Shown here: piece after piece, positions 37,471 through 45,948 of the stretch
Layout: every line of letters begins with the position of its first letter
How positions within the stretch are numbered: position 1 is the stretch's first letter
Assembly (NCBI GenBank): GCA_041690595.1
Contig: JAWLHB010000008.1
Location: 1 to 64,000 of the forward strand
Source: Lentisphaeria bacterium
GTDB lineage: Bacteria; Verrucomicrobiota; Lentisphaeria; JABSQK01; JAWLHB01
DNA: 64,000 nucleotides
Direction: 5' to 3'
Program-made: the position numbers and the translations under genes
Notes under the pieces: generated by a model
What the model was told of the DNA's origin: nothing
What the model saw: the letters and a program-made list of their open reading frames with translations, nothing else
The model's database searches: none

Positions 37471-38550
37471 TCAGCCGGTGGAGCGGCCGATAATGAGGCG
37501 GGGGCGCAACCAGATGGTATGGCGGCGATCGGGGTGCTGGCGCCGCTGAAGCAGTTCGACGGCAGCGTGGACGAAGCCCTCGTTCTCACTGCTGAGGGTG
37601 GTGATGCCGCACTCCTCCGACCACGGCGTGGCGAGGCAGCCGGTCACCGCGAGATCGTCGGGAATGCGCAATCCGGCCTGCTCAGCGGCGCGCATGACCA
37701 TGACAGCTTCCCAGTCGTAGGTACAGACCACGGCGTCCGGCCTGTCGGGCTGCGAAAGGCGTTTGGCGATGGCGACAATGTTTGCATTCTGTCCATTGCC
37801 GATCGGAGACCTGCTGTACTCGAAGATATCGGTCCGATCCCAGCCGCCGCAGACGCTGAGGGCATGCCGGAAGCCGTCCGTGGAATGATAGGAGAAGCCA
37901 CTCCTCGGTATGTGCTGAAGGAGAGTCACGCTACGCCGGCCCGTCTCCCAGAGGTGGCGCAGCACTTGCAGGTAACCGTATCCGAAATCAAGCGCCACGA
38001 GGTCTCCGGGCAGGTCGGCCTGCAATGCCGTACCTTCCGAGATCCAGACGATCTGGTCGTACCTGTGGCCCTCTTTCAGGATGTAGTCGATCAGAGGGCC
38101 GCTGTGGATCTGCAGGAGCAGGCGACGGCAGCCGACCCGGTACAAGCGCTCGAATACTTCCCGCAATTCGGTTTCAGAACGGTGCTCGCCCATGTCGAAG
38201 ACGGTGGGCACGAGACCGTTTTCCTGCATGTGGCTGACCAACAACTGCGCGCGCTCGCCATAGACATCGCCAGTGGTCATCAGCACGGTCGCCACCATGG
38301 GGGAGGCGGTGGACTCGCCAGCCAGCGCGGTGATGTAGGTGCCACTGCCACGCCGACGCTCGATCAGCCCCTCGACCTCGAGTTCTTCCAGAGCAAAGCG
38401 CAGGGTCTGCCGGTTGCACGAGAATTTCTCGGCCATCTCGACTTCAGGCGGCATTCTGTCGCCGGGAGAGAAGGCGCCACTGCTGATCAGCAGCCGCAGT
38501 TCCTCTTCGACCTGATTGCGCAATAAGGGGCGCCTACCGAGTTTTGTCAT
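37471..38550 (-). CDS. GntR-family regulator with LacI/periplasmic-binding-type sensor domain
   Basis: PGDRMPPE..R.TLR.AL..L..EGLIERRRGSGTYI HTH; PDAVVC..GLRIPDDLAV C-terminus. Confidence 0.9.
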   Translation of the reverse strand: MTKLGRRPLLRNQVEEELRLLISSGAFSPGDRMPPEVEMAEKFSCNRQTLRFALEELEVEGLIERRRGSGTYITALAGESTASPMVATVLMTTGDVYGERAQLLVSHMQENGLVPTVFDMGEHRSETELREVFERLYRVGCRRLLLQIHSGPLIDYILKEGHRYDQIVWISEGTALQADLPGDLVALDFGYGYLQVLRHLWETGRRSVTLLQHIPRSGFSYHSTDGFRHALSVCGGWDRTDIFEYSRSPIGNGQNANIVAIAKRLSQPDRPDAVVCTYDWEAVMVMRAAEQAGLRIPDDLAVTGCLATPWSEECGITTLSSENEGFVHAAVELLQRRQHPDRRHTIWLRPRLIIGRSTG

Positions 38551-38682: not shown

Positions 38683-38768
38683 GGGGACACGGAGACGGGC
38701 GGAGGTATGCAGGAGGATTAACCACAAAGAACGCAAAGATCGCAGAGAACGAGCGGGGGAGGGGAGCG
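38683..38768 (+). repeat. 86-bp dispersed repeat, copy 2
   Basis: Direct repeat of 35645-35730. Confidence 0.9.
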
Positions 38769-38901
38769 CACGGGGACGCGGGGACGCGAAGTGGACGAAG
38801 TGGACTGACGGGGCCGTTTGGGGCAACGGCCCAAAACGAACCGAGGACGGCAATGCAGAGCGCACAGAATGGATGTCGATGAATAGTTTTGTTTTTCCGA
38901 C

Positions 38902-38931
38902 TTGACTTTTGCGTTATTTATGATATACATT
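38902..38931 (+). promoter_or_regulatory. Candidate sigma70 promoter upstream of the intron-interrupted ORF
   Basis: TTGACT-18 nt-TACATT in an AT-rich patch. Confidence 0.4.
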
Positions 38932-38976
38932 AAAACGTCCATAGGATAGTTACCATAAGCTTTGTGGGGAGTGGAA

Positions 38977-39236
38977 ATGAGGGGACTTGGCGAGAGGATG
39001 CGGCGGTTTGCGGAGGAGTCTGTGAAGGACTTATGTGCGGCGAAGGCGGCGCCGCGGGCGGGTTATGCGGAGTCGTTCGCGAAGGCGCGGGCGACGGAGT
39101 TGCTGCAGGTTAGGAGGGTGCCGTTGCTGGTGCGGGAGTTGGTGGGGGAGGAGAAAGAGGCGCTGGGGTATGGGTATCTGGTGAGGAGGGACTTGGCGGA
39201 CCGAGTGGCAAGGCGAACGAGTGGGCCGAATCGTCG
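38977..39236 (+). other. Orphan ORF 5' part, putative exon 1 of the intron host
   Basis: GGAG RBS plus ATG 38977, open up to the predicted intron start; extremely G-rich; no recognised family. Confidence 0.35.
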
Positions 39237-41182
39237 TTGCGATTCGGGGAACCGATGGAAAGCGCCGGTAAAGGCCGGCATGGAGTAGAGGATGAGAGAG
39301 CCTTACAGTGAAGACTTAGCCAGTAGCACTGGCCCCGAGCTATGCCTCGACGACCCGCAAGGGCGTGGGGAAGCGTTAGTAGGGGTACGCAGAAGCGGGC
39401 TATTGAGCTCCGATATGATCATTCGGGTGCCGGTCCCCTCATCGGACGGGTCGGCGACACGGTGGGCGGCGCCTTGGCGAGCCGCGCCCCGGCTCGACGG
39501 AGTCACAGAACCTGGCACCTGCGGAAACTCCATGCACGGAAACCGGGAGAGCTTGGCGAATGCCTCGTCAGCGTACGTTTGCACGCGAGCGCGAGGGGGT
39601 TGCGTGAAGCCGATGAGGCGCGCGACGCAATCTGGAGTAGCCAAGCAGTCAGACGACAGCGTAGTACCAAAGAAGGTGCCGAACAAGGGAACGGCGGTTC
39701 CCGCGGAGACACTGGAGGGAAGGCATGTCGACTGAGAGGAACGTGGACAAGCAAGCCGTGCTCCGGACGCAGAGCCGGGCTCGCACGTCGTCCTTACTTG
39801 CTCGCGTGCGTGAACGAAGTACGTCAGACCGGCACACCCGGTTCACCAACCTGTACAGTCACCTGAGTGTGGACCTGTTGCGCGACAGCTTCTATGAGCT
39901 GAACCGCTCGGCCACGCCGGGGATTGACGGAGTCACGTGGGCTCGGTATGCGGTCAATCTGGAGTCCAACCTGACGAGGCTGCACAAACAGCTACACACG
40001 GGGACGTATCAGGCGCGGCCGGTGCTGCGTCGCTACATCCTCAAGCGGGATGGACGTCAGCGACCGCTGGGGCTCACGACGCTGGAAGACAAGCTTGTGC
40101 AGCAGGCCTGCGCCGCGCTGTTACAGGCGGTCTACGAGCCGCTCTTTGCGGGTTTCAGCTATGGCTTCCGTACGGGCTGCCAACCGCATCACGCGCTGGA
40201 CGCGCTGTATGCGGGGGTGGTACGCAAGAAGATCCGCTATGTGCTCGATGCTGACATCAAGGGCTTTTTCGATGCAATAGACCACGATCTGCTACTTAAC
40301 GCGTTGAAGCGGCACATCAGCGATCCGCGCTTGCTGCGCCTGATCTGCAAATGGCTGAAAACCGGCCATGTGGAGGACGGGACTCGGCATCCGGGCACGG
40401 TAGGTACGCCTCAGGGAGGGGTCATTTCCCCGATCCTGGGTAACATCTACCTGCACTACGCGCTCGACCTGTACGCCGAGAAATGGCGAAAGTCGCAGAC
40501 ACGCGGTGACATGATCATAGTCCGCTATGCGGACGACTTCGTGGTGGGCTTTCAGTACTACCACGAGGCCGAGCGTTTCCGCCGCGACTTGGCGGCACGC
40601 TTCGAGCAGGTCAAGCTCACGTTGCATCCGGAAAAGACACGCCTGATCGAATTTGGTCGCTTTGCCGAGCAAAACCGCCTTGAGCGCGGCGAAGGACGAC
40701 CGGAAACCTTCGACTTCCTTGGCTTCACGCACTGCTGTGCGAAGACGACCCAAGGAAAGTTCTGGATCCGCCGACTCACGATCAAATCGCGCCTGCGCGA
40801 CAAGCTGCTCGCGATCAAGCAGCAGCTGTGGTCCCGCATGCACCAACCGATCAGCGTGACCAGCGCGTGGCTGAGAAGTGTCATCACCGGCTACATGCAG
40901 TACCATGCTATCCCCGGTAATATGGGGCGCGTGGGCATGTTTCGTGATGAGGTGGTGACTCACTGGCTCCGCGTCATCCGACGCCGCAGCCAGAAAGGTC
41001 GAAAATGGACGTGGGCACGATTCAATCAGTATCTGAATCCGCTCCTTCCACAACCGACCCTCTGCCATCCGCTACCCCTGACTCGTTTTGACGCCACTAC
41101 TCAAGGTAGGAGCCGTATGAAGTAGTACTTCACGTACGGATCTGTGCGGGGGGTGCCGGGCGACCGGCATCCCTACCGCGAT
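39237..41182 (+). mobile_element. Group II intron (IIB-like, probably bacterial class E; no endonuclease domain)
   Basis: Domain V GAGCCGTATGAAGTAGTACTTCACGTACGGATC (about 41110-41143; AGC triad, AC bulge), domain VI with bulged A ending ...CCCTACCGCGAT (41182); intron-like GGAAACCGGGAG and GTAGTACC segments before the ORF; 5' end TTGCG at 39237 is uncertain. Confidence 0.88.
39725..41125 (+). CDS. ltrA: Group II intron reverse transcriptase/maturase
   Basis: PGIDGVT, RPLG...DKLVQ, SYGFR, DIKGFFD, GTPQGGVISP, RYADDF, FDFLGF, maturase X domain; stop falls in the domain V loop. Confidence 0.95.
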   Translation: MSTERNVDKQAVLRTQSRARTSSLLARVRERSTSDRHTRFTNLYSHLSVDLLRDSFYELNRSATPGIDGVTWARYAVNLESNLTRLHKQLHTGTYQARPVLRRYILKRDGRQRPLGLTTLEDKLVQQACAALLQAVYEPLFAGFSYGFRTGCQPHHALDALYAGVVRKKIRYVLDADIKGFFDAIDHDLLLNALKRHISDPRLLRLICKWLKTGHVEDGTRHPGTVGTPQGGVISPILGNIYLHYALDLYAEKWRKSQTRGDMIIVRYADDFVVGFQYYHEAERFRRDLAARFEQVKLTLHPEKTRLIEFGRFAEQNRLERGEGRPETFDFLGFTHCCAKTTQGKFWIRRLTIKSRLRDKLLAIKQQLWSRMHQPISVTSAWLRSVITGYMQYHAIPGNMGRVGMFRDEVVTHWLRVIRRRSQKGRKWTWARFNQYLNPLLPQPTLCHPLPLTRFDATTQGRSRMK

Positions 41183-41200
41183 TGCCGGGACCGAGGAATC

Positions 41201-41731
41201 GACCGAGGTTTTGGGATGGAGCGAGGCGCGGGAGGCCACTCAGGCGAGTGGCGTGCCCGGGGAGCGCGGGAGGAAGGATGGAGATTGGGAAGGGGCAATG
41301 TCCAACGCCGGTGCCACTCAGGCGAGTGGCGTGCCCAGGAATGCGACCGAGGTTTTGACCGAGGTTTTGGGATGGAGCGAGGCGCGGGAGGCCACTCAGG
41401 CGAGTGGCGTGCCCAGGGAGCGCGGGAGGAGTGGTGGAGGTTGGGAAGGGGCAATGTCCAACGCCGGTGTCCGTCGGTGGACGGACGTGGCCGCCATTCA
41501 GGCGAGTGGCGTGCCCAGCAATGCGACCGAGGTTTTGACCGAGGTTTTGGGATGGAGCGAGGCGCGGGAGGACACTCAGGCGAGTGGCGTGCCCAGAGAG
41601 CGCGGGAGGAGTGATGGAGATTGGGAAGGGGCAATGTCCAACGCCGGTGTCCGTCGGTGGACGGACGTGGCCGCCCTTCAGGCGAGTGGCGTGCGCAGGA
41701 ATGCGACCGAGGTTTTGACCGAGGTTTTGGG
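41201..41731. repeat. Tandem array of 156/180/180-bp units with REP-like hairpins
   Basis: Units start at 41201, 41357, 41537, 41717 (partial); CAGGCGAGTGGCGTGC at 41241, 41319, 41397, 41499, 41577, 41679. Confidence 0.95.
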
Positions 41732-41911
41732 CGAATCGTTGGGGAGCGGCCGCAGGGGAGCCGCCGTCGAGGTGAAGGGGAGAACGGAGAATGAAACGGC
41801 GACCAATAGTGCCGCGATACTGCCTGAAAGCGCTTGCTTCAGGGGCGGCGTCGTGGTAGTGTAACGTTTCGCCCGGGTTTGTCGTTTTTATTGTATCAGG
41901 AAGAGTCAGGC

Positions 41912-42889
41912 ATGAGCAAAACGAGTCACGTCTGCACCATGGATGCCCAGCAGGCAGAGCAACTGCGGCATATTCTGGAGCAGCAGAATTGGGAGTTGGA
42001 TACAATTCCCTATGCCCGCTATCGGGCGCGCAAGAACAAGACCACGGTCACTGCCTATGAATCGGGCAAAGTGACGGTGCAGGGGCGCGAGACGGCGGAG
42101 CTGGTGCAGTTTTACATCGAGCCGGAGATCCTGAAGGAGGCGCGCTTCGGGTACGAGGCGGAGATGGCGCAGGTGGAGCATCCGGACATGTTCGAGCCCC
42201 ACGCGGGCATCGACGAGAGCGGCAAGGGTGACTTTTTTGGTCCGATGGTGATCGCATGCGTGTATGTGGATCAGGAAAGCGGCTTGAAGCTGGTGGAAGC
42301 GGGGGTGCAGGATTCGAAGGCGATCAAGAGCGACAAGCGGATCACGATGCTGGCGCAGGAGATCCGCAAGATCGTGCGGGGGCGCTACAGCCTGGTGCGC
42401 ATCGGGCCAGGCTCCTACAACCGGATGTACCAGAACATGCGCAACGTCAATCGCCTGCTTGCCTGGGGGCATGCGCGGGCTTTGGAGAATTTATTGGAAA
42501 AGGTACCGGAGTGCCCGCGGGCGCTATCCGACCAGTTTGCCCGCAAGAGCGAGGTGCTGAACGCGCTGAAGGAGCGCGGCCAGCGCATTCAGCTCGACCA
42601 GCGACCGAAGGCGGAGTCGGATATTGCGGTGGCCGCGGCGTCGATCCTGGCGCGCAAGGGGTTCATCGATCAGATGGCGGAACTGGGCGATGTGGCGGGC
42701 TGCACGTTGCCGCGAGGCGCCTCGAAGCAGGTACTCGCCACTGCCGCCAACGTGATCCAGCGGCTCGGTGAGGAGAGGCTCGGCGAGTTCGCCAAGCTGC
42801 ATTTCCGCACGGCGGCCACGGCGGTGGACATGGCAGCAGAGGGTGACTTCGAGACTGAACCCGCCAGCCCCCCGAAAGCGAACTCATGA
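41912..42889 (+). CDS. rnhC: Ribonuclease HIII
   Basis: TBP-like N-domain (AYESGKVTVQG), GIDESGKGDFFGP, DSK, DQF, KAESD.AVAAASILAR, KLHF. Confidence 0.92.
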   Translation: MSKTSHVCTMDAQQAEQLRHILEQQNWELDTIPYARYRARKNKTTVTAYESGKVTVQGRETAELVQFYIEPEILKEARFGYEAEMAQVEHPDMFEPHAGIDESGKGDFFGPMVIACVYVDQESGLKLVEAGVQDSKAIKSDKRITMLAQEIRKIVRGRYSLVRIGPGSYNRMYQNMRNVNRLLAWGHARALENLLEKVPECPRALSDQFARKSEVLNALKERGQRIQLDQRPKAESDIAVAAASILARKGFIDQMAELGDVAGCTLPRGASKQVLATAANVIQRLGEERLGEFAKLHFRTAATAVDMAAEGDFETEPASPPKANS

Positions 42890-45800
42890 TCCTGCATGCT
42901 TTCTGGGAGGTCGATAGTTGCGCCATGGCCTTTTGGGCCGAGCGGTCGCGCGAGGAGTGGCTTCAGGAAGTCCCTTCCGGAAAGCCTCCGCGCCATCCGG
43001 GCACGCTGCCTTTCAGCCAACTCAAGGGCGTGGTGCCGCGGGCTCTCGATGTCTATGAGGACGAGATTACGATCCTGCTGCCGACCTCGGGGTACCTGCC
43101 TCGCGCCACCCTCGAAGCCGCGCGGAAAGATGAGCGGCTGCGCCCGTGGTACCTGCAGACGGCCCATTCAATTGGCGACTGTGTCATGGAATGGATGTTC
43201 GAACGGGACGAAGATCTCCCCGACTTCAAGCTGGCCGAGGGAGCCAACCTGGAGTTTGGGGAGACAGTGCAGTTCTGGCTGAAGGCCGCGGAGTTCGCGC
43301 GGGTGCTCGTCTGGCGGAGTTCTTTCGCGCCGGGCATCGTGCGGTTGGAACAGCGTTACTACCCATCGTGGCAGGCGGTCTTCACGCCCAACGAGGAAGC
43401 GTACTGGCATGAGCTGGAGCGGCACATGCCGGCGGCCTGCCTGGCGAACTACCAGAGCGAGGGGGGCCACGACAAGCTGCTTGGCGCGAAGACCATTCTC
43501 CTTTCCTTCATCGATGCGGCGGTGGACCACCTCGTGCGTCGACGGCTGCTGCGGCAGAACGCGCGTCGCCTGCAGAAGAAGAAGGCGAGCGCCCCACCCC
43601 ACCGGCAATGGCTGAGCCTGCTCAAGCATGGCCGCCTCTCGTCGCTGGAGGGCACGCCGCGGGAGCTTTCGCAGTTCGCGGACGAAGTGCGGTCGTGGAA
43701 CCAGTTCATGCGCCTGCCGTACCTGAAGACGCCGTTCCGGCTTGTCTTTCAACTCTCGTCGCCGCCGGACGAGGAGGAACCGTGGCGGGTGCATTATGCG
43801 CTTCAGGCGGCCCGGGATCCCTCCCTGCTCCTGCGCGCGGAACAGCTTTGGAATCCGGATGCGGACACCAGCAGTGCGCTCACGGCGCGGGGCCGCGAGA
43901 CCCTGCTGGCCGGCCTTGGCCGCGCCATCGGCGTCTTCCCCCAGATCCGGGAGAGCCTGGCCGGCGGTGAACCGGCATGGTGTGAGCTGGACAAGTTCGA
44001 GGCCATCGAGTTCATGTCGAAGACGGCGCCCCTGTTGCGCCGGCATGGCTTTCACGTCATCCTGCCATCGTGGTGGGAAGACCCCGACGATGCGCTTCAC
44101 CTGACGCTGCGCATCACGCCTGCCGGTCTCGACGCTGGGGATCGACAGCCCGCGCTGGGTATCGAACAGCTCGTGCAGTACCGGTGGGATGTCGCGCTTG
44201 GAGACCAGTTGCTGAGCGAAGACGAATTCCGGGCTCTGGCGCTCACCAAGGAGCCCCTGATCCACCGCGACGGGAAGTGGTTCCGGCTGGATGCACAGGC
44301 GCTGCGCAAGTCGGTGAATCTGCTGGACAAGCGGGAGCGGGAGGGACATACATCGCTGGAGAAGGCGATGAAGCTCAGCCTGGAGTTGGAGAAGAACGGG
44401 GTGGTGCCGATCATCGATTTTCAGACGGAGTCGGACCCCACGGAGCTGCTGCGGAACATCAAGCCCAACATGGTTTTCCGGGAATTCGAGCCGCCGCCTG
44501 GTTTCATCGGCGAGCTCCGTCCTTACCAGATCAAGGGTTTTTCGTGGCTCAGCTTTGTGGGGAGTCTTGGCTACGGAGCCTGCCTGGCGGACGACATGGG
44601 TCTCGGCAAGACGGTCCAAATGATCACGGCGCTCCTTCAGCAGCGGGTGGACGAACCGGAAGAAGATCGTCCGTCGCTGATCATCTGCCCCATGTCGGTG
44701 GTGGGCAACTGGGTCAAGGAGATCAACCGCTTTGCGCCGGCCTTCAAGGTGATGGTGCATCACGGCAGCGACCGGGAGCAACTGGAGCAGTTTGTGGAGA
44801 GCGCGAATCAGCACGATATCGTCATCACGACATATGCGCTGGCCGTGCGCGACCAGGTTTGCCTGCTGCGCTGCTACTGGAGCAATATCATTCTCGACGA
44901 AGCGCAGAACATCAAGAATCCGAGCACCAAGCAGGCGCTGGCGATCCGTTCGCTGCGGGGCGGCTATCGTTACTGCCTGACCGGCACGCCGATCGAAAAC
45001 CGCCTCACGGAGCTGTGGTCGATCATGGAATTCCTGAACCCCGGCTACCTTGGCCGGCAGAGCTCATTCCGGGCGAATTTCTCGGTGCCGATCGAACGCG
45101 ACAAGAATCCGAGCCGGGCCGACGTGCTGCAGAAGATCATCCGCCCCTTTGTGCTGCGGCGCCTCAAGTCGGACCGTGATGTGATCCGCGACCTGCCGGA
45201 GAAGCAGGAGATGAAGGTCTTCTGCAACCTCACGACGGAGCAGGCGGCGATCTACCAGGCGGTGGTGGACGACATGCTGACGGCGATCGACGGGCAGAAC
45301 GGCATTGGCCGGCGGGGCATGGTGCTCACGACGCTGATGAAGCTCAAGCAGGTGACGAACCATCCCTCGCACTTCCTGCGGGACAACGACCAGCTCAAGT
45401 CGGAGCGTTCCGGGAAGCTGCAGCGCATGGAGGAGATGCTCGAGATCCTGCTTGAAGAGCGGGATCGGGCTCTGGTCTTCACGCAGTTCAGTGAGTTCGG
45501 CGGCATGCTGCACAAGAAGCTCGAACGCAAGTTCGGCATCGAGGTGCTCTACATGCATGGGGGCACGCCGAAGCACAAGCGGGAGGAAATGGTCAACCGC
45601 TTCCAGGCCCGCAATGGACCACAGATCTTCCTGCTCTCTCTCAAGGCCGGCGGCGTCGGGCTCAATCTTACGGCGGCTTGCCATGTCTTCCACTTCGACC
45701 GCTGGTGGAATCCGGCGGTAGAGAATCAGGCGACGGACCGGGCCTTCAGGATTGGCCAGACCCGCAACGTTCAGGTTCACAAGTTTGTCTGCATCGGCAC

Positions 45801-45948
45801 GGTCGAGGAAAAGATCGACCAGATGCTGGATGAAAAGAAACGCCTTGCCGATTTCATCGTCACCCCTGGTGAAGAGATGCTCACCGAGCTGTCGACCGAA
45901 GAGCTGCGCCAGATCTTCAGCCTAACCCGGGACGCCGTAGTCGAATGA
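42886..45948 (+). CDS. SNF2-family helicase-like ATPase
   Basis: LRPYQ, LADDMGLGKT, LDEAQNIKN, LTGTPIEN, SLKAGGVGLNL, WWNPAVENQATDRAFRIGQ. Confidence 0.95.
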   Translation: MILHAFWEVDSCAMAFWAERSREEWLQEVPSGKPPRHPGTLPFSQLKGVVPRALDVYEDEITILLPTSGYLPRATLEAARKDERLRPWYLQTAHSIGDCVMEWMFERDEDLPDFKLAEGANLEFGETVQFWLKAAEFARVLVWRSSFAPGIVRLEQRYYPSWQAVFTPNEEAYWHELERHMPAACLANYQSEGGHDKLLGAKTILLSFIDAAVDHLVRRRLLRQNARRLQKKKASAPPHRQWLSLLKHGRLSSLEGTPRELSQFADEVRSWNQFMRLPYLKTPFRLVFQLSSPPDEEEPWRVHYALQAARDPSLLLRAEQLWNPDADTSSALTARGRETLLAGLGRAIGVFPQIRESLAGGEPAWCELDKFEAIEFMSKTAPLLRRHGFHVILPSWWEDPDDALHLTLRITPAGLDAGDRQPALGIEQLVQYRWDVALGDQLLSEDEFRALALTKEPLIHRDGKWFRLDAQALRKSVNLLDKREREGHTSLEKAMKLSLELEKNGVVPIIDFQTESDPTELLRNIKPNMVFREFEPPPGFIGELRPYQIKGFSWLSFVGSLGYGACLADDMGLGKTVQMITALLQQRVDEPEEDRPSLIICPMSVVGNWVKEINRFAPAFKVMVHHGSDREQLEQFVESANQHDIVITTYALAVRDQVCLLRCYWSNIILDEAQNIKNPSTKQALAIRSLRGGYRYCLTGTPIENRLTELWSIMEFLNPGYLGRQSSFRANFSVPIERDKNPSRADVLQKIIRPFVLRRLKSDRDVIRDLPEKQEMKVFCNLTTEQAAIYQAVVDDMLTAIDGQNGIGRRGMVLTTLMKLKQVTNHPSHFLRDNDQLKSERSGKLQRMEEMLEILLEERDRALVFTQFSEFGGMLHKKLERKFGIEVLYMHGGTPKHKREEMVNRFQARNGPQIFLLSLKAGGVGLNLTAACHVFHFDRWWNPAVENQATDRAFRIGQTRNVQVHKFVCIGTVEEKIDQMLDEKKRLADFIVTPGEEMLTELSTEELRQIFSLTRDAVVE

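Follow-up and report, generated by a model that had tools for sequence, protein, structure and literature searches.

A Group II Intron in a Split Small-Terminase-Like Gene

The window considered here is a stretch of 64,000 nucleotides (nt) from a Lentisphaeria bacterium (assembly GCA_041690595.1, contig JAWLHB010000008.1, positions 1 to 64,000 of the forward strand), and it contains a group II intron that sits in sense orientation within a promoter-bearing open reading frame (ORF). Joining exon 1 (38977-39257) to exon 2 (41183-41864) gives 963 nt that form an ORF of 320 aa with a single terminal stop. The first part of this gene encodes a helix-turn-helix (HTH) of the small-terminase type, and the last part runs through an array of repetitive extragenic palindromes (REPs). 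Intron-free paralogs in the same genome continue across this site without a change of frame and lead into REP arrays. The features of the locus are as follows.

38902-38929, + strand: promoter, with −35 TTGACT (38902-38907) and extended −10 TGATATACA (38921-38929)
38966-38971, + strand: ribosome-binding site (RBS) GGGGAG; a purine-rich GGAGG-like block precedes the ATG in 15/15 paralogs
38977-39257, + strand: exon 1, 93 codons and 2 nt; small-terminase-type HTH (residues 6-61) and linker
39226-39247, + strand: 9-bp hairpin in the 5′ exon (−9.1 kcal/mol, z −2.52), holding in its loop and 3′ arm a TTGCG earlier taken for the intron start
39252-39257, + strand: intron-binding site 1 (IBS1) CCGATG, perfect complement of exon-binding site 1 (EBS1) and last six pre-junction bases in the intron-free copies C2 and C5
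39258-41182, + strand: group II intron, 1925 nt, 5′ GAAAGCG ... GAT 3′
39286-39288, + strand: TAG that ends the unspliced ORF (103-aa product)
39295-39512, + strand: ribozyme domains I-IV core (RF02005, group-II-D1D4-6)
39440-39445, + strand: EBS1 CAUCGG, in the loop of the domain Id hairpin
39725-41125, + strand: intron-encoded reverse transcriptase (RT)/maturase, 466 aa, with YADD and no endonuclease domain
41108-41182, + strand: domains V and VI (RF00029), with AGC triad, 2-nt bulge, bulged branch A and 3′ ...GAT
41183-41864, + strand: exon 2, 227 codons and stop; T-E-V-L / ATQASGVP repeats; aligns with C5 and C2 across the junction
41189-41731, + strand: tandem array of 78-, 102- and 180-nt units with six REP palindromes

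The intron is real and looks intact, since Rfam recognizes both the D1-D4 and the D5/D6 parts of its ribozyme, its ORF matches TIGR04416 and RVT_1, and its D5/D6 region adopts the expected fold. The domain I-IV core reaches 131.5 bits against RF02005 (gathering score 49) and covers positions 1-225 of the 225 in the model, and domains V and VI reach 40.4 bits against RF00029 (gathering score 40). The D5/D6 region folds at −41.4 kcal/mol (z −4.54) into a structure that displays the AGC triad, a bulge of 2 nt and the bulged A, and it ends in ...CUACCGCGAU. An original prediction, made from the sequence of this locus without database searches, had let domain V/VI end at 41182, and both the RF00029 match and the fold bear this out; exon 2 starts at 41183 and its stop lies at 41862-41864. 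The same prediction described the RT/maturase ORF as intact, and the 39725-41125 ORF indeed scores 122.5 bits against RVT_1 and, with 320 bits, exceeds the cut-off of 300 set for TIGR04416, the NCBIfam equivalog for group II RT/maturases. Its best solved relatives are LtrA, the GsI-IIC RT and the T.el maturase, but these structures give no class assignment, as all three score alike (E 1e-35 to 1e-40). A blastn search with 39200-41250 as the query found the intron as a single copy in the 8.1-Mb, 99-contig assembly, and all remaining matches fell within the final 72 bases of the query, which belong to exon 2; a second search likewise gave one match in this genome.

Intron Boundaries and the 5′ End

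The 5′ splice site is 39257|39258, a position that rests on three independent lines, namely intron-free paralogs, EBS1-IBS1 pairing and homology with other introns. The intron-free copies C2 (C2:114544) and C5 (C5:288269) read TTCGGGGAACCGATG|TGCCGGGACCGAGG unbroken and are identical to the window flanks at 29/29 positions, and three further copies (C27, C39 and C46) carry the same intron-free site with 3 mismatches. At the protein level, the junction product ...DSGNRC|AGTEESTEVLGW... aligns with ...GSGNRCAGTEESTEVLGW... of C5 and C2. EBS1 (CAUCGG, 39440-39445) forms 6/6 Watson-Crick pairs with IBS1 (CCGAUG, 39252-39257). This pairing was compared across 13 introns, comprising the window's and 12 related introns from public genomes with an RT identity of about 50%. 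In 11 of the 13, the window's included, the EBS1 hairpin holds a perfect complement to the six bases that end the exon, and the pairing covaries. Nine of the 11 match at the assumed boundary and two after a 2-nt shift, which gives a start of GAGCG. The EBS1 hairpins of L003 and L011 lack an exon complement, yet three of four sister copies of L011 fit. Similarity between the window intron and the 12 related introns begins at GAAAGCG. Both the paralogs and the related introns, which end in ...CUACCGCGAY, confirm 41182|41183 as the 3′ end.

The original prediction had placed the 5′ splice site 21 nt further upstream, at 39236|39237, for an intron of 39237-41182 that starts with TTGCG and leaves a 313-aa product. 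It had also flagged this site as uncertain, and the caution was justified. A TTGCG start does give a junction in frame, and UUGCG 5′ ends are reported for another intron in PMC7923331. However, the 15 bases ahead of the actual junction (TTCGGGGAACCGATG, 39243-39257), which would then count as intron, are exon in the intron-free C2 and C5 copies, the EBS1 hairpin contains no complement of TCGTCG, and homology with the 12 related introns begins only at GAAAGCG. These boundaries were rejected on the combined grounds of paralogs, pairing and intron homology, and they have next to no chance of being right. As 21 nt are divisible by 3, the shift leaves the frame argument untouched, so that splicing would restore an open frame as predicted, with a joined ORF of 320 rather than 313 aa. 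The prediction had proposed other intron copies or intron-free alleles as a check; the assembly holds no second copy, and the intron-free paralogs moved the 5′ site and left the junction in frame.

A start with GUGYG or a variant had likewise been expected, and only the variant is found. GAAAGCG is shared with related introns, opening four of them (L004, L020, L073, as aligned, and L023), and others start with GUGCG, GUAGCG, GAUGCG or GAGCG. Judged from these alignments, the non-GUGYG end is no argument against group II membership, since the GAAAGCG variant is common to related introns. It is also compatible with recent mobility, because it begins the L004 family (L004-L010, L014, L018 and L029), which comprises 10 copies, 99.7-99.8% identical, in one Phycisphaerae metagenome-assembled genome. 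As a separate observation, eight of these 10 copies resemble one another in the sequence to either side, which points to a repeated target element in that genome as well; a hairpin suspected in their 5′ flanks was no better than shuffles (z 0.69).

Related intron copies also occur on metagenome contigs, where similarity is lost at 39251 and at 41182 and array-like sequence lies beyond. Among four metagenome runs (X1, X2, X4 and X5), in which 38842-39083 had no cover, no contig joined 39257 to 41183. An exact-pattern scan of metagenome contigs for the last 33 nt of exon 1 and for the first 34 nt of the intron returned 0 stretches each. At 39441, within EBS1, the related metagenome copies (X2, X4 and X5) carry C rather than A. 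With this change, EBS1 would be expected to pair with CCGAGG, which forms the core of the 12-nt array repeat, instead of CCGAUG; the substitution is noted as a lead only.

The Host Gene Belongs to a Small-Terminase-Like Family

Exon 1 had been described as an orphan ORF, but it is one of a family of 16. It matches PF03592 (Terminase_2) with 30.9 bits against a cut-off of 26.1, over profile positions 3-58 of 141, and the terminase small subunit profile phrog_51 at E 2.1e-7. Searches with tblastn and through the genome recovered 16 such genes, that is, 15 paralogs beside the window copy, and exon 1 has 14 close paralogs in the genome. The family consists of six long copies, one divergent copy (C12:1908) and nine short copies including the window's, all of which possess the N-terminal HTH. 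The long copies have a domain of ~225 aa that matches PF03592 positions 2-129 of 141 and aligns over about 145 residues with terminase-like proteins of 160-200 aa. In 15 pairs drawn from the six, the ratio of non-synonymous to synonymous substitution rates (dN/dS) is 0.10-0.53, which indicates purifying selection on the long domain. Short copies keep the first 47-57 residues and then continue into repeats. The window copy (PF03592 3-58 only) is without the oligomerisation core that follows the HTH in the long paralogs.

The start of the gene is conserved together with its upstream region. A promoter-like patch and an RBS had been noticed ahead of the ATG at 38977, and the patch, with its −35 TTGACT at 38902-38907, is indeed kept in 15/15 close paralogs. 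All 15 close copies share a promoter, a variable leader and a purine-rich RBS; TTGACT is exact in 13/15, and an extended −10 of the form TAtnnT is aligned in 15/15. A single sigma-70-like site was found at the window promoter, no more than shuffles give, and no terminator-like site was found on the + strand between 38500 and 42100.

Genes of this family are scattered among unrelated genes, and no phage genes were found beside the four loci inspected (the window, C36, C7 and C12). The genome contains one match to Terminase_6N, 53 kb from the nearest family copy, and no match to PF03354. Among 40 same-order or same-class genomes, the family was found in none (0/40) at E 1e-5 or better. An HMMER scan of 1.84 billion representatives gave 226 matches at E 1e-3 or better and six at 1e-10 or better. 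These six best matches, with lengths of 371, 541, 248, 136, 103 and 182 aa, equal the genome's own paralogs in length, and the remaining matches are ordinary terminase-like proteins. Apart from one JGI "phage terminase small subunit", a word-based homolog search returned nothing beyond two paralogs from this genome, and NCBIfam has no family for the long terminase-like domain. The family loci lie on C7, C29, C25, C6, C49, C36, C12 and others, and each gene continues into a tail that is either of low complexity or made of REPs; in the C36 copy, about 50 TEDS/TEHS units of 12 nt follow one another in tandem.

REP Arrays and Their Transposase

The array in exon 2 has REP starts at 41235, 41313, 41391, 41493, 41571 and 41673. 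It can be divided into three 180-nt units spaced 156 and 180 nt apart, equal to 52 and 60 aa, which agrees with the three-repeat C-terminal part that had been predicted. The prediction had also warned that the array is open in several frames, and this is the case on both strands. The REP itself is a 23-nt palindrome whose hairpin folds at −11.8 kcal/mol (z −3.91), and the genome contains 281 copies with at most 5 mismatches, of which 157 are identical. With such uniform copies, no covariation in the REP stem can be seen. Repeats like those of the window make up 106 arrays with a total of 25.6 kb. As counted from the arrays listed, 95 of the 106 are not next to a terminase-like gene, and about a third of the 42 arrays of at least 200 nt are not spanned by an open frame. 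Since 20/106 arrays come within 400 nt of a contig end and runs of N occur in two (C7 and C2), the repeats break the draft assembly, and the array lengths must be read as minima.

A REP-associated tyrosine transposase (RAYT) is encoded on C26, where it scores 89.2 bits against NF047646 (cut-off 80) and 26.4 bits against Y1_Tnp (cut-off 23). Eight REPs flank it, at 129(−), 297(+), 1165-1729(−, five copies) and 1894(+). C26 therefore has the classical REPtron layout, and the window repeats are true REPs of this genome. The original prediction had offered a REP-like array as an alternative to a repeat protein, and on the nature of the DNA it was right, given the 281 palindromes and the RAYT with its eight REPs. 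Within C26:1-2000 (L101), the five downstream REPs stand exactly 141 nt apart.

REPs are extragenic by definition. The window array and six other terminase-linked arrays depart from this location, to which most other arrays conform. Counted from the ATG, the phase is 0 in 25/25 REPs inside family ORFs at 7 loci, the six REPs of the window falling into phase 0 once the 1925 nt of the intron are removed, and of the 112 occurrences inside 15 ORFs of ACCGAGG, which makes up the core of the 12-nt repeat, 107 have phase 0, although such phase counts are not independent, as the paralogs share ancestry and have probably undergone gene conversion. Two REPs beyond stop codons have phases 1 and 2. The spacing between REPs of the same orientation is a multiple of 3 in 16/17 cases within 2.5 kb of a terminase-like start, compared with 45/134 elsewhere, which is the chance level. 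These figures argue with moderate strength for maintenance of the T-E-V-L / ATQASGVP frame, which would accordingly be translated.

Comparison with Known Introns, REPtrons and Terminases

The intron appears most like those of bacterial class E (IIE), because its RT has Chlorobium relatives, its ribozyme measures 524 nt and its domain V loop can be drawn with 5 nt; the class is unproven, and Rfam places the RNA only in the subfamily D1D4-6. The class E introns described by Nagy et al. (2013; PMC3753933) include Ch.ph.I2-1 of Chlorobium phaeobacteroides and Cl.be.I2, and the IIE examples given there come from Chlorobium. Many of the nearest RT relatives of the window intron (about 50% identity) are likewise found in Chlorobium or Chlorobiaceae records. 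Its ribozyme length (1925 − 1401 = 524 nt) falls within the 450-700 nt stated for class E in the same source (PMC3753933). As further points of likeness, the intron-encoded protein (IEP) is without an endonuclease domain, a 6-bp EBS1-IBS1 pairing sets the 5′ site, and the 3′ end is AY. The domain V loop can be drawn as GAAG-UAGUA-CUUC, although in the ViennaRNA fold an additional pair forms and the loop shrinks to 3 nt. The window intron differs from class E in its 5′ GAAAGCG, where GUGYG is usual, and in that no EBS2-IBS2 pairing was found. In same-order relatives, shortened and ORF-less intron derivatives were observed (L098 at G012:C97:953-1221, L094 at G014:C348:1034-1695, L093 and L095), in which only about 270-700 nt, containing no RT gene, separate the matches to RF02005 and RF00029.

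Class C introns, which PMC3753933 and PMC7923331 mention, sit behind terminator hairpins or attC sites. The window intron resembles these and REP-associated introns in its insertion at the border of a REP array, 10 nt past a hairpin, and related metagenome copies are also flanked by arrays. However, the window site lies inside an ORF, in frame and in sense orientation, and unlike class C introns the window intron uses a full 6-bp IBS1 rather than a short pairing and has AGC as its D5 triad. Of the group II intron copies reported for Pseudomonas putida KT2440, 2/9 are REP-associated (Tobes and Pareja, 2006; PMC1525189). REPtrons, in which REP or bacterial interspersed mosaic elements (BIMEs) occur with a RAYT (NF047646; Nunvar's work as summarised in PMC2936281), are matched here by a 23-nt palindrome in 281 copies, by dispersed arrays and by a RAYT flanked by eight REPs that include inverted pairs. 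They differ in that the REPs of this genome also serve as in-frame tails of a 16-gene family.

The host family shares with phage small terminases (PF03592, phrog_51) the N-terminal HTH, and its long copies match positions 2-129 of 141. In contrast to such terminases, there are 16 scattered copies, no large terminase was found beside the four loci inspected, and the window copy retains the HTH only. Introns inside bacterial ORFs are already known. The Ll.LtrB intron, for example, reportedly lies in the coding sequence of the ltrB relaxase gene, whose product depends on splicing. The window intron is similarly placed in sense within an ORF whose full-length product would arise only after splicing, whereas its host gene is redundant and probably a degenerate paralog, of which only the C-terminal tail depends on splicing.

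A Probable Splicing-Dependent REP-Encoded Tail

On the evidence of sequence comparison, it is probable that a competent-looking, class-E-like intron occupies one of the 16 orphan genes of a lineage-specific family and that its predicted splicing yields the REP-tailed protein typical of the family. The intron would recognize the linker ...CCGAUG|U by the 6-bp EBS1-IBS1 pairing and would have been inserted by retrohoming or retrotransposition; the hinge sequence at the insertion site is conserved in five other family members. Introns that lack an endonuclease move by reverse splicing with priming at the replication fork, and insertion into this site presumably followed that route. The conserved promoter would then drive a precursor transcript. 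If unspliced, the precursor would give a 103-aa HTH protein that stops inside the intron, and IEP-assisted splicing would give the family-typical 320-aa protein with its REP-encoded tail. Splicing in vivo is predicted, the tail would presumably be translated and useful, and the degenerate-looking window copy may still matter to the cell. The two alternatives of the original prediction, a splicing-dependent repeat protein and an intron that homed next to a REP-like array, thus each hold in part. For the splicing-dependent protein, a sense intron within an ORF, paralogs in the same frame and in-frame REPs were found, whereas splicing and translation themselves are unproven.

Several findings weigh against this account. 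The window copy is without the ~150-aa terminase core and may be decaying, and of the private changes in its first 47 codons 7 are non-synonymous and 0 synonymous, the family maximum, two of the seven being prolines in the HTH. The copy accordingly looks degenerate, which may be either a cause or a consequence of carrying the intron. The 5′ end is GAAAGCG and not GUGYG, the RF00029 score is only 0.4 bits over its threshold, and no EBS2-IBS2 pairing of at least 6 bp occurs in a common alignment column across the 13 introns. The two perfect target sites in C2 and C5 are empty, which could mean that the intron is not mobile now. With regard to the tail, several frames are open through the REP arrays, the majority of the 106 arrays are unattached to such a gene, the non-independent phase counts derive from only about 5-6 distinct types of domain-to-array junction, and the canonical unit is 78 nt, so that pristine arrays keep the frame without selection.

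A rival account is an incidental in-frame insertion into junk, in which the intron homes to CCGATG + T at the edge of a REP array, the host copy is a truncated, decaying, pseudogene-like paralog, and the open frame is a by-product of stop-poor, G+C-rich 12- and 78-nt repeats and of gene conversion among paralogs, so that no fusion protein matters. The REPs are dispersed genome-wide with a transposase of their own, 95/106 arrays are not beside a terminase-like gene, and array-like sequence borders the related intron copies on the metagenome contigs X2 and X5. The excess of private non-synonymous changes in the window copy points the same way, as do those of the short paralogs (3-6 against 1-2 private synonymous changes; the long copies have 0-1 private non-synonymous changes), and a precedent exists in the REP-associated 2/9 intron copies of P. 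putida KT2440 (PMC1525189). An insertion into junk is nevertheless rather unlikely, given that 25/25 in-ORF REPs are in phase 0, that spacings are multiples of 3 in 16/17 cases near the family genes against 45/134 elsewhere, and that ACCGAGG keeps phase 0 in 107/112 occurrences across roughly 5-6 junction types. Moreover, promoter and RBS are kept in every copy, truncated ones too, and dN/dS is below 1 in the long copies. A dead intron, disabled for example by its non-canonical 5′ end or by hidden lesions, would leave the gene permanently cut to the 103-aa HTH protein. The GAAAGCG end, the single copy despite two perfect free sites, the marginal D5/D6 score and the reduced, ORF-less derivatives of this RNA family in same-order relatives could all be read in this way. 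However, GAAAGCG also opens four other introns, among them the recently mobile 10-copy Phycisphaerae family, the RT ORF is undamaged, carries YADD and scores above the equivalog cut-off, the D5 triad, bulge and branch A are intact, and the EBS1-IBS1 pairing is perfect. A dead intron is therefore improbable.

Beyond the favoured account of a competent intron in a REP-tailed gene, a more far-reaching possibility can be put forward tentatively. REPs may have been recruited as translated, frame-maintained tails of 16 DNA-binding-like proteins, and the intron may home to the hinge between HTH and tail, such that the HTH would always be made and the tail would be added only on splicing, an intron-gated addition of a domain. 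The family could act as a partner of the REP system, for example with its HTH binding REP arrays, or it could be a contingency family with variable tails.

Bacterial group II introns rarely lie inside ORFs where splicing decides which protein is made. The present intron is of a kind already known, with an uncommon 5′ end, and the in-frame REP tails of the host family are the unusual part. The locus offers a cleanly bounded intron within an ORF, for which intron-free paralogs in the same genome serve as built-in controls, and the subclade with a 5′ GAAAGCG should be useful for intron-finding pipelines that are anchored on GUGYG. If their translation were confirmed, the REP tails would blur the extragenic definition of REPs and would provide a testable link between a family of DNA-binding proteins and the REPtron.

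Neighbouring Genes and Upstream Sequences

By eye, the split gene is preceded by a LacI-type-regulator-like ORF (37471-38550, − strand) and followed by an RNase HIII-like ORF (41913-42889, + strand) and a SNF2-family-helicase-like ORF (42886-45948, + strand), and no phage or mobile-element context was seen in these three neighbouring ORFs. Upstream of the promoter, at 38717-38759, lies the motif ATTAACCACAAAGAACGCAAAGATCGCAGAGAAC..., which recurs upstream of C14, C49 and C5 and looks like another type of dispersed repeat. A hairpin, GGCCGTT-TGGGGC-AACGGCC, occupies 38812-38831 upstream of the gene, and the alignment shows a similar hairpin ahead of the C12 paralog.

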